Below are positions 1 through 10,447 of a stretch of DNA of 10,447 nt, in pieces (within the stretch, counting starts at the first letter, position 1; every line of letters starts with the position of its first letter). The notes beneath the pieces are model-generated. The model was given only the letters and a program-made list of their open reading frames with translations, had not been told where the DNA came from and did not search any database. The translations under genes and the position numbers were made by a program. Origin of the DNA: Armatimonadota bacterium (GTDB taxonomy: Bacteria > Armatimonadota > Armatimonadia > Armatimonadales > Armatimonadaceae); the NCBI GenBank assembly GCA_043754515.1, contig JAYUUO010000193.1, forward strand, positions 1-10,447. Direction: 5' to 3'.

Positions 1-1308
1 CAGGGTTCGCAGATTAAGGTGGGCAAGCGTGTAAGCAGCGGGCAGTAGTTCAAAGCCGAAGAAGTGCTTCGCGAGGTGGGTTCGGGCGCGGTCGGGGAAC
101 AGCGCGGCGTCCCCCGTCTCGGTCATGCGCTCCTTCACACGGCGGTACGCACGCGCGAGGAATGTACCGGTTCCGGTGGCGGGGTCGAGGAGGCGCACGG
201 CGGGATTTGCAAGCCCCCCTTCCAGGTCGAAGCCGGGGGACGCGAGCAGATCGTCCACGGCGCGAACTATGAAGTCGGTGACGGGTTCGGGCGTGTAGTA
301 GGTGCCGGTGGCTTTGCGGAGCGTCGGATCGTACACGGCCAGGAACGTCTCGTAGAAGTGGATCATCGGCTCTTTGCCGTCGGTCTGCTTCGCGCCGAGC
401 GCGGCGGATCGGTTGGCTTTTGCTAAGTCGCCGATGATGCCGGACACGATCCAATCGAGTTCGGGGGGCAGGTCGGTCAGGCCGAACCGGATCAGGGCGC
501 GGATCGGGGCGACCGCTTCAGGCAGAAGACGCAGAGCCTGAGCCTGATCGAATGGCTTGCGGTCGTCGTCGTGGCGCATCCAGGCGAGAAACAAGCCGTA
601 GGCGAACGTTTGCGCATACAGGTCGGCGAACTGCTTTTCCGAAACGTCGGTGGAAAGCGCGGCGCGGTAGGACGCGAGGAGCGGGGTTAGTTTGTCGCTA
701 TGGGCATTGAGGAGTTTCTTCGCGTTGTCGCGCAACAGGCTCGCCCGCATGGCGAGAAGCCGCGCGAGATTTTCGGAGGAAGTGACAGAGGCGGTGGCGT
801 CGGAAAGGAACTGAAGTAGGAGGGCGGCTAGTGCGTCGCGGTCAGCGTCGGGGACGGTGAGAGCGGTCTGTGTGTCGAACGCGGGTAGTTTGACCCTGGC
901 GACCGGGACCGTATCGCCTTTATTCTAAAGGCGATAGTCGGTGTGGTTCGTTTGAAGGAAGTTAGGGAGTCCGGCGATGAAGCGGTCGTTCTGGATCTTC
1001 GCGGAACCCTTCAGCGCGGACAGATCGGCGGTAACGGCTTCGGCCTCGACATATCCGACTTCGGATAGTCCGTTGTTTTGCGTAGCCTGGAAGTCGGGAC
1101 GCCCGAGGGCGTTTGCCCCAGCTTCGTTGGTGAAGTGGACACCAGGGAAACCGAGCGCGGACGCGGCGGCGTTGAGGAAGTTTTCGAGCGGCGTGCGGTA
1201 GGACAGTTCAGGTGTCGCGCCCTTCGGCACGGCTCGGAGTTCGGCGTAGTAGCGTGCAAGCGGTTCGGTCAGTTCGGGGGCGGGGGAGCGAGTTTCGGCG
1301 CGGTTCAT
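1..1308 (-). pseudogene. Fused restriction endonuclease / N6-adenine DNA methyltransferase (Type IIG / Type ISP-like), interrupted by one in-frame TAG at 927-925; 3' part lies outside the window
   Basis: ATG at 1308 gives 127 aa (TPELSYRTPLENFL...GRPDF...GYVEAE...NFLQTNHTDYRL), a PD-(D/E)xK-type N-terminal domain, then TAG. By manual translation the same frame stays open for 308 codons to position 1: NKGDTVPVARVKLP...FADLYAQTFAYGLFLAW...EPMIHFYETFLAVYDPTLRKATGTYYTPEPVTDFIVRAVDDLL...LLDPATGTGTFL...FFGFELLPAAYTLAHLNL. This includes GTYYTP (motif X) and DPATGTGTF (SAM-binding motif I, 186-160). Confidence 0.9.
912..936. repeat. Perfect 11-bp inverted repeat with a 3-nt loop (TATCGCCTTTA-TTC-TAAAGGCGATA), overlapping the premature stop of the R-M gene
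   Basis: 912-922 is the exact reverse complement of 926-936. ACCG (908-911) can pair further with CGGT (939-942) across a 2-nt bulge. Confidence 0.95.
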
Positions 1309-9525: not shown

Positions 9526-10447
9526 TTACGGCACGTTGTACTGAGTCGAGTAGTTAGAGGTATGCCCATTCCCGATGACGCGGACGCGATACGAGCCGCT
9601 GTTGTAGCCGGGGAGCGGGACGTAAAACTCCACCGGGCTGGTCGCGGTCTGTGCCTCCGCAGGCACGGACTTCATGCCAACTACCGCCCAGGTTCCGTCA
9701 CCCGCTTGCTTCTCCGCTTGGACAGACGTACCCGCCGGTTGCGGAACGCTCACCCGCGTCTGTAGCAACATGCAACCGCGCGGGCACGCACTCCCGTCGG
9801 AGCCACCGGAGCGGATCTGTCCCCGGCCTATGATATCCGCGCCTGGAAGTGTGCTGAATGCCACGCCGTACTGCGCCGTCAACTCGTCGCGCAACGACTG
9901 CTTATCACTCTTCATGCCATCGGGAGAGACTCCGCCGCCGATCTCGTCCTCGGGGTCGGTGCCGTCCGTGTTGAAACGCCCCTGGTTCAGGTTGTCCAAG
10001 GTGTAGGTGCCATCCGTCTCCTTTGCGACGAACAGGACGTAGCTGGCACCGCTCTTCAACTCCGCGCAGTCCTCTATCACGGACTTGATGAACCCTCCGC
10101 TACCGTAGTCAACCAGCCCGACCGGCTCAGCAACCCGTATCGTCTGGCCGACCGTGATGCCGAACCCCGCCGGGCTGTTGAGCACCCCCGTCACCGCGAA
10201 GGAGCCGACGGTCCACTCCTCGACGACGTATTCGTTCGGGTCGTTGTCGAACAGGTCAGGGACATGGTATCGGACGAAGTGGGTTCGCCCGGACACGAAC
10301 TCCTGCGTCGGTGTCCCTGTGATGACGGCACTGTCGTTCGCGGCGAGATCACTCAGATTCGTGTCGTAATACGCGTCCCCGTGAACTCTCGACACAGTGA
10401 TCTTGCCTGCGGCCAGACCCAGCGGGACGACCACCCTCTCGATCCCC
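9526..10447 (-). CDS. Hypothetical, probably exported protein (5' end outside the window): N-terminal beta-barrel-like domain plus C-terminal FN3/Ig-like domain
   Basis: The frame is open to the window edge. The N-terminal part has the pattern Y..LSDLAANDSAVITG...FAVTGVL...TIRVAEP...LKSGASYVLFV...Y...QGRF. The C-terminus VQAEKQAGDGTWAVVG...YRVRVIGNGHTSNYS resembles FN3 strands. Confidence 0.75.
   Translation of the reverse strand, partial: GIERVVVPLGLAAGKITVSRVHGDAYYDTNLSDLAANDSAVITGTPTQEFVSGRTHFVRYHVPDLFDNDPNEYVVEEWTVGSFAVTGVLNSPAGFGITVGQTIRVAEPVGLVDYGSGGFIKSVIEDCAELKSGASYVLFVAKETDGTYTLDNLNQGRFNTDGTDPEDEIGGGVSPDGMKSDKQSLRDELTAQYGVAFSTLPGADIIGRGQIRSGGSDGSACPRGCMLLQTRVSVPQPAGTSVQAEKQAGDGTWAVVGMKSVPAEAQTATSPVEFYVPLPGYNSGSYRVRVIGNGHTSNYSTQYNVP

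Follow-up and report, generated by a model that had tools for sequence, protein, structure and literature searches.

The window, as the whole stretch of DNA that was analysed is called here, has a length of 10,447 nucleotides and represents the entire contig C193 of genome G000. On the minus strand, a gene for a predicted type IIG restriction-methyltransferase occupies positions 1 to 1308 with its 5' portion (436 codons) and reaches the contig end. PADLOC reports REase_MTase_IIG with an E-value of 1.6e-74 for the read-through protein, with the stop codon described below entered as X. Full-length homologues have about 1050-1120 aa; the 3' 60% of the gene is past the contig end, and this remaining part was not found in the G000 assembly. 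The window protein shows 87% sequence identity to homologue P0124 across 419 aa, with one gap.

A type IIG gene with a stop codon at a palindrome

The minus-strand frame from 1308 to 1 is interrupted by a single stop codon, TAG at 927-925, which was the sole lesion named in an earlier inspection of the letters alone (the sequence-only reading) and is the only one in the 436 codons covered by the count. It occupies codon 128. In the alignment of 120 homologues, this column contains Tyr in 111, Phe in 7, and Trp in 2 sequences, in agreement with the family pattern (RLYxxG) which that reading had named. The predicted off-state product is a 127-aa nuclease-domain fragment (925-1308, minus strand). 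Its putative catalytic motifs, P71-D72 and E88-A-E90 (1039-1098, minus strand), were assigned from the homologue alignment; P71-D72 and E88 are invariant in the 120 homologues, which conforms to a PD-(D/E)xK-type nuclease motif. Position 90 is Lys in 108 of the 120 and Glu in the other 12, an E-x-E subclade that includes the window protein (1039-1047, minus strand). Past the stop, the N6-adenine methyltransferase domain (Pfam N6_Mtase, residues 317-433) begins at 10-363 on the minus strand, in the same frame as the nuclease according to both Pfam and PADLOC results on the read-through protein. PF18135 is listed for P0002, the closest full-length homologue; the C-terminal target-recognition region of the window protein itself is beyond the contig end. 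The stop had been placed at about the boundary between nuclease and methyltransferase. It is indeed near the end of the nuclease domain, but about 190 codons ahead of the methyltransferase domain.

The stop codon straddles the stem/loop junction of a perfect palindrome, as had been described, with the span being slightly narrower (912-936) than the 908-942 given originally. A hairpin search and a DNA fold place the 11-bp arms at 912-922 and 926-936 and the unpaired 3-nt loop at 923-925. Each arm contains the hexamer CGCCTT, at 915-920 on the plus strand and at 928-933 on the coding strand, 7 nt from its partner. When the loop is flipped computationally in the window sequence, stop-Asn is converted into Tyr-Ser, as predicted. 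Thus, inverted repeats flank the flipped part and one of its orientations makes a stop, as in premature-stop invertons. The hairpin is the longest perfect one in the window (loop up to 10), and its DNA fold has a z-score of -4.39, with none of 200 shuffles being equally good. Since G000 carries 368 perfect hairpins of at least 11 bp (loop 0-10) in 5.13 Mb, one such hairpin alone is not rare. Among hairpins with a stem of at least 9 bp in coding-like frames of G000, flipping toggles a stop in 8 of 175, a background set from which a score filter left out the window site, which a second scan recovered. The codons of the hairpin core are rare ones (CTT accounts for 8% of Leu, TCT for 6% of Ser). 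By inspection, no simple repeat tract is present in 890-960, and the lesion is a stop rather than a frameshift.

Four of the 21 listed sequencing runs were examined at the site. Contigs from X2, a possible source, and from X5 and X7, which belong to two other studies, span the palindrome, are identical across 912-936, and all carry TAG; X6 had no coverage. In the X2 contig, the gene is longer by 694 bases. All 144 sampled words of the window are present in four possible source runs. Because the stop occurs in contigs from three studies, and X5 and X7 differ from the window elsewhere, it is real and shared between strains, and an assembly error is ruled out. The contigs of the three site-covering runs, which drop rare variants, contain no flipped allele. 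No RNA dataset containing the window was present among the listed runs; X7 is probably DNA.

Strain differences in the window gene rest on single contigs with a depth of 3-5, so that errors are possible; when a cluster at codons 327-329 is excluded, 6 of 8 changed codons are non-synonymous, and one change (A424D) hits a column with Ala in 118 of 120 homologues. The window population looks stably off and perhaps decaying, and the predominance of non-synonymous changes suggests that it has been off long enough to drift. In X7, five clustered differences at 322-328 of the window shift the peptide towards P0002, by recombination or in a chimeric contig.

Both loop orientations in the type IIG family

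A search of 401 genomes led to G138. The G138 protein is only 40% identical to the window protein, yet its gene shares the 23-nt core and is interrupted by the same stop within a 13-bp stem, and this is the only stop in a frame of 1054 codons. The gene of its congener G191 shows 88% DNA identity to that of G138 and shares 12-bp arms with it, while the loop is flipped, so that the frame is open (on). At the site, the G191 loop is exactly the G138 loop in reverse complement, and one synonymous base is changed in addition. This extra base leaves a 5-nt loop, the flip of which would give Trp; with both orientations open, the G191 gene looks locked on.

Protein sequences extend this pattern. P0124 reads RLYSKGD, the flipped Tyr-Ser state, while P0123, which is 83% identical to the window protein, has 127 aa and ends at the same codon as the window frame. 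In the G138 clade, P0132 terminates at that stop codon position and the full-length P0281 reads RLYSKGE (on). The predicted Tyr-Ser allele thus exists, in DNA from G191 and in the proteins P0124 and P0281. The window clade accordingly comprises off members (window, X5, X7, P0123) and an on member (P0124), as does the G138 clade (G138 and P0132 off, G191 and P0281 on). In a quick maximum-likelihood tree of 51 rows, the hairpin genes form two clades parted by starred branches. On and off states occur in both, which indicates at least two origins as far as such a tree can be trusted. P0002, the nearest outgroup to the window clade in the same tree, is devoid of the motif.

The outer pair of the stem covaries, being T:A in the window and A:T in G138 and G191, and it replaces a Phe which is present in 119 of 120 homologues. 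Among 111 distinct homologous sites, a count that left out 15 loci without a motif match, the stem does not exceed 8 bp in 108. Between G138 and G191, 77 codon differences are synonymous and 31 non-synonymous, with 5 amino-acid changes on the off branch versus 10 on the on branch; a second off/on pair gave 29 versus 76, with an outgroup that may lie closer to G138. Judged from their sequences, the off genes examined are otherwise whole and under purifying selection, not decayed. Scans of JGI metagenomes yielded no close relative, the relatives found being 33-42% identical and all devoid of the hairpin, and a scan of viral contigs did not find the palindrome.

Several simpler origins of the stop were considered and dropped. 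A one-way correction of TGG to TAG that perfects the stem, offered as an alternative in the sequence-only reading, is not supported, with Trp in just 2 of 120 homologues at column 128. A single change from TAT or TAC to TAG was dropped in view of the Tyr-Ser alleles in both clades, and an insertion footprint was rejected because the length compared to homologues shows no consistent change. The suggestion of a reversible on/off switch is supported in part: the link between stop and Tyr-Ser by a loop flip is strong and both states occur in two clades, with reversibility itself deduced from comparison between genomes.

The arm motif in other restriction-modification genes

Arms of the type CGCCTT...AAGGCG were found in 20 restriction-modification (R-M) genes from 10 related genomes, with 1-4 unpaired central bases; the motif is CGCCTT at 19 of the sites and AGCCTT at the twentieth. 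The spacer has 7 nt at seven sites, 8 nt at five, 9 nt at seven, and 10 nt at one, and is 75% A+T. The genes belong to Types I, IIG, and III and include hsdM, hsdS, type III mod, MmeI-like, Eco57I-like, and other IIG genes. At all 20 sites flipping gains or loses a stop, with 14 sites being off and 6 on. The stops at the other sites are TAA or TGA and occur mid-domain in methyltransferases, target-recognition domains, and HsdS. The left arm is read in each of the three registers, which makes it a motif of the DNA rather than of the protein. The phylum Armatimonadota is suggested by named homologues.

Genome G000 contains exactly three CGCCTT-N7-AAGGCG sites, each of them a long palindrome. Besides the window site, there is one on C293 in a PglX/IIG-like R-M gene, which is on and where a flip of the central base generates TAA. 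Its right arm is overlapped by a second hairpin (L196:7032; 12-bp stem, 6-nt loop), whose flip makes no stop. The third site (C287, L197:3279) is neutral and is located at the 5' end of a likely secreted-protein gene. Look-alike paralogues of an unnamed ORF from the far end of the window (9526-10434, minus strand) are found near it on C287.

Orthologues may differ at the site. In another IIG gene, G138 (off) and G183 (on) differ by a single central base; there, as between G138 and G191, the alleles are related by reverse complementation of the loop with unchanged arms, as in template-switch loop inversion. The orthologues from G138 and G231 have different solutions at one place, and in the homologous genes from C293 and G159 the motif is at different positions; the G159 gene was PADLOC-negative on the scanned part and is counted through its alignment to the C293 gene. 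The mod gene from G231, in the on state at the hairpin, seems broken further downstream. From these sequence comparisons, switch sites with common arms are of repeated independent origin.

Genome-wide arm searches that did not require a stop (27 plus 71 genomes) retrieved 29 looped perfect sites. Twelve of these are in R-M genes, and all twelve toggle a stop. Among imperfect control sites, 1 of the 50 scanned (of 62) is in an R-M gene, and a further one is the G191 allele. In 142 loci chosen mainly by R-M family and with any arm permitted, (C/A)GCCTT occurs in 13 of 16 toggling hairpins and in none of 55 non-toggling ones, a contrast for which the Fisher value of 1e-11 is overstated because five genomes had been picked for motif hits; for six of the 13, the R-M family was the sole basis of retrieval. 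A scan of 391 genomes which demanded TAA added three further sites (3 of the 20 thus come from that pattern), with R-M sites only in three families. An arm search with an extra outer pair was positive in 35 of 401 genomes and resembled background. The arms are also present at terminator-like and neutral sites, most R-M genes of switch-bearing genomes are devoid of such a hairpin, and two in-frame R-M stops are plain point changes (L382, L428).

The CGCCTT palindrome was also seen at the 5' end of likely secreted-protein genes, with L349:2756 (G127) and L365:3673 (G004) being off and L366:3323 (G409) on. L365 and L366 look homologous, yet their spacers differ. The device may thus also switch surface proteins.

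Other palindromes were encountered. In a methyltransferase locus of G039 (L024:2418), a frame of 593 codons ends in tandem stops that are covered by a 16-bp perfect hairpin with related arms (ATCGCCAT). In a Uma2-family gene of G000 (L194:3514, C174), a 12-bp hairpin without the motif has a TAG in its 8-nt loop, and the frame continues into a phosphofructokinase gene. A palindromic repeat whose AAATCG arms flank a spacer of 7 nt is dispersed over 17 places in G000 (e.g., C74:11204, C157:29556, C163:31532) and is REP-like or operator-like. In G138, REP-like GC-rich hairpins occur in frame within IIG genes (L256:2265-5427, L260:4860; repeated peptides GRGNPAPT and VGAGFPRP) and are also clustered downstream.

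A candidate switch, its proposed mechanism, and alternative explanations

The common arms in 20 R-M genes, together with the toggling of a stop in each of them, point to a selected on/off switch. We thus favour, with some reserve, the interpretation that the hairpin is a selected, reversible, and sequence-specific micro-inversion switch of R-M genes. The flip would be a loop inversion of the template-switch type, affecting 1-4 central bases; it is read in this way because no recombinase was found among the 11 window ORFs scanned. Plain template switching leaves the common arms unexplained, so that a host factor which recognizes the arms and raises the flip rate at these palindromes is likely. 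The original proposal of a recombinase-free process is retained only insofar as no recombinase is encoded beside the gene, with the shared arm sequence pointing to a sequence-specific host factor that was not foreseen there. Selection would have placed stop codons in hairpin loops, through which R-M genes could be silenced reversibly. In the off state, cells would be without restriction, which might allow DNA uptake or prevent self-cutting; restriction would return in the on state. Switching may be slow, on the scale of populations and not of a single culture.

The main rival is an unselected hotspot. A host process (e.g., nicking at CCTT) would perfect palindromes and flip loops wherever the arms occur; flips that generate stops would be removed from core genes, whereas dispensable R-M genes would tolerate them, drift to the off state, and later decay. 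The 14 to 6 excess of off over on sites speaks against a switch, as a one-way inactivation hotspot would give it too, and a hotspot would also fit the off state of every site-covering contig and the mostly non-synonymous strain changes in the window population. The G191 change, which opens both orientations, is expected if selection favours escape, and template switching is an established mutational cause of inverted loops (PMC8794818). A mere hotspot does not account for the absence of neutral CGCCTT hairpins from R-M frames while a flip creates a stop at 6 of 6 on sites (compared to toggling in 8 of 175 background hairpins), for stems that are maintained despite loss of a near-invariant Phe, or for off genes that are otherwise full-length and under purifying selection. 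We consider the hotspot possible, though rather unlikely.

Much less credit is given to two other explanations. In one, a dedicated, distantly encoded site-specific recombinase would use the palindrome as crossover site and invert the central bases by two exchanges. Inverted arms around a 7-9 nt spacer presumably resemble tyrosine-recombinase sites, and G000 has 14 tyrosine recombinase matches. However, G138 has just three such matches for three sites, the scan of the window ORFs was negative, and a spacer that varies from 7 to 10 led us to reject a recombinase site of fixed spacing; we find this reading improbable. In the other, the gene would be functionally split or read through, with the hairpin sequestering the stop or translation restarting downstream (first ATG at 750), which would result in methylation without restriction. 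In the window family the stop does remove just the nuclease part from a long downstream frame, and G000 has a tRNA with a CTA anticodon that was scored by ARAGORN and Rfam. However, C37 and altered D and T loops mark this tRNA as degenerate, and it was not found in 60 relatives. Among the 3432 predicted genes, TAG is the most frequent terminal stop, with 1306 cases, and PylS was searched for and not found, so that amber recoding or suppression was rejected. Met187 is present in 1 of 120 homologues, and the mid-domain TAA and TGA stops of the other sites also disagree with a functional split, which we regard as very improbable. The tRNA-like gene itself (G000 C138:11927-11999, corresponding to L046:3928-4000, minus strand; Rfam 37.2 bits) sits among ORFs of no assigned function and, by eye, adjoins Cas5/Cas6-like ORFs.

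A candidate for the factor that would promote flipping in the proposed switch is a poxvirus-like topoisomerase IB. Poxvirus topoisomerase can resolve junctions and form hairpins. The bacterial topoisomerase IB encoded by G000 looks intact, with equivalents of Gln69, Tyr70, Tyr72, Arg80, and Lys167, and the enzyme is encoded in 10 of 10 switch-bearing genomes. Of 66 topoisomerase IB-positive genomes, 10 are switch-bearing, compared to none of 32 negative ones (p = 0.015, uncorrected for kinship and with uneven site searches). Both strands have CCTT at the end of the arm. The vaccinia enzyme cleaves after (C/T)CCTT (PMC2666729), while the base ahead of CCTT is G here. Of the bacterial enzymes covered in the accessible part of that paper, the one from Pseudomonas has a modest preference for CCCTT and that from Deinococcus has none. 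In a genus in which no R-M site was seen, topoisomerase IB is present in 20 of 24 genomes with contact residues that look alike, and sequences from switch-bearing and other relatives are not separable by eye (22 of 24 loci aligned). No link between topoisomerase IB and loop flips was found in the literature searched. A broader version, in which a housekeeping topoisomerase IB nicks both strands of short palindromes after GCCTT, the A+T-rich spacer melts and refolds, and repair inverts 1-4 bases, would amount to a phase-variation code across this branch of the phylum, with all types of R-M genes and some secreted-protein genes having independently evolved the palindrome around a stop and no dedicated recombinase being involved. 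We consider this, like the topoisomerase candidate itself, doubtful.

The proposed switch resembles known systems in part. Intragenic invertons of the premature-stop class also add or remove a stop by inversion between inverted repeats within a gene (Chanin et al., PMC10028968); the example in the available text spans 57 bp, and its inversion is predicted to be invertase-mediated. Here, 1-4 bases flip rather than tens of bases, there is no adjacent invertase, and a single 6-bp arm is used by R-M genes that are not related to each other. The inversion of hairpin loops through template switching in replication, including bacterial rRNA examples (Monttinen and Loytynoja, PMC8794818), shares the perfect stem, the conserved loop length, the replacement of the loop by its reverse complement, and compensatory stem changes. 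It is, however, described as a mutation process and not as a gene switch, apparently needs no particular arm sequence (compare the arm motif in 13 of 16 toggling hairpins versus 0 of 55 others), and in the accessible text neither an arm motif nor R-M genes are named. Phase-variable R-M systems, as far as the sources available describe them, affect the same targets (mod, hsdS, hsdM, IIG), with a bet-hedging role that would also apply here if switching is real. They depend on simple repeat tracts (mod phasevarions) or large invertase-driven segments (hsdS invertons), neither of which is seen here. Hairpin-loop flip switches in R-M genes were not described in the literature searched, which covered few subscription journals and no supplements. 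It is likely that the hairpin is an undescribed on/off switch for anti-phage genes, a form of gene-internal inversion switching.

With a footprint of 1-4 bases, such a switch would likely be missed by tools for invertons and repeat tracts, and annotation would call the genes pseudogenes. The common 6-bp arm opens it to direct tests, and bacterial topoisomerase IB would gain a candidate role. If real, the switch would provide a 20-base programmable toggle for synthetic biology. Even if the sites are an unselected hotspot, they would reflect a sequence-specific mutation process which repeatedly inactivates R-M genes. If the switch is real, it would be a third route to phase variation of defence and methylation genes, beside repeat slippage and invertase-driven inversion.
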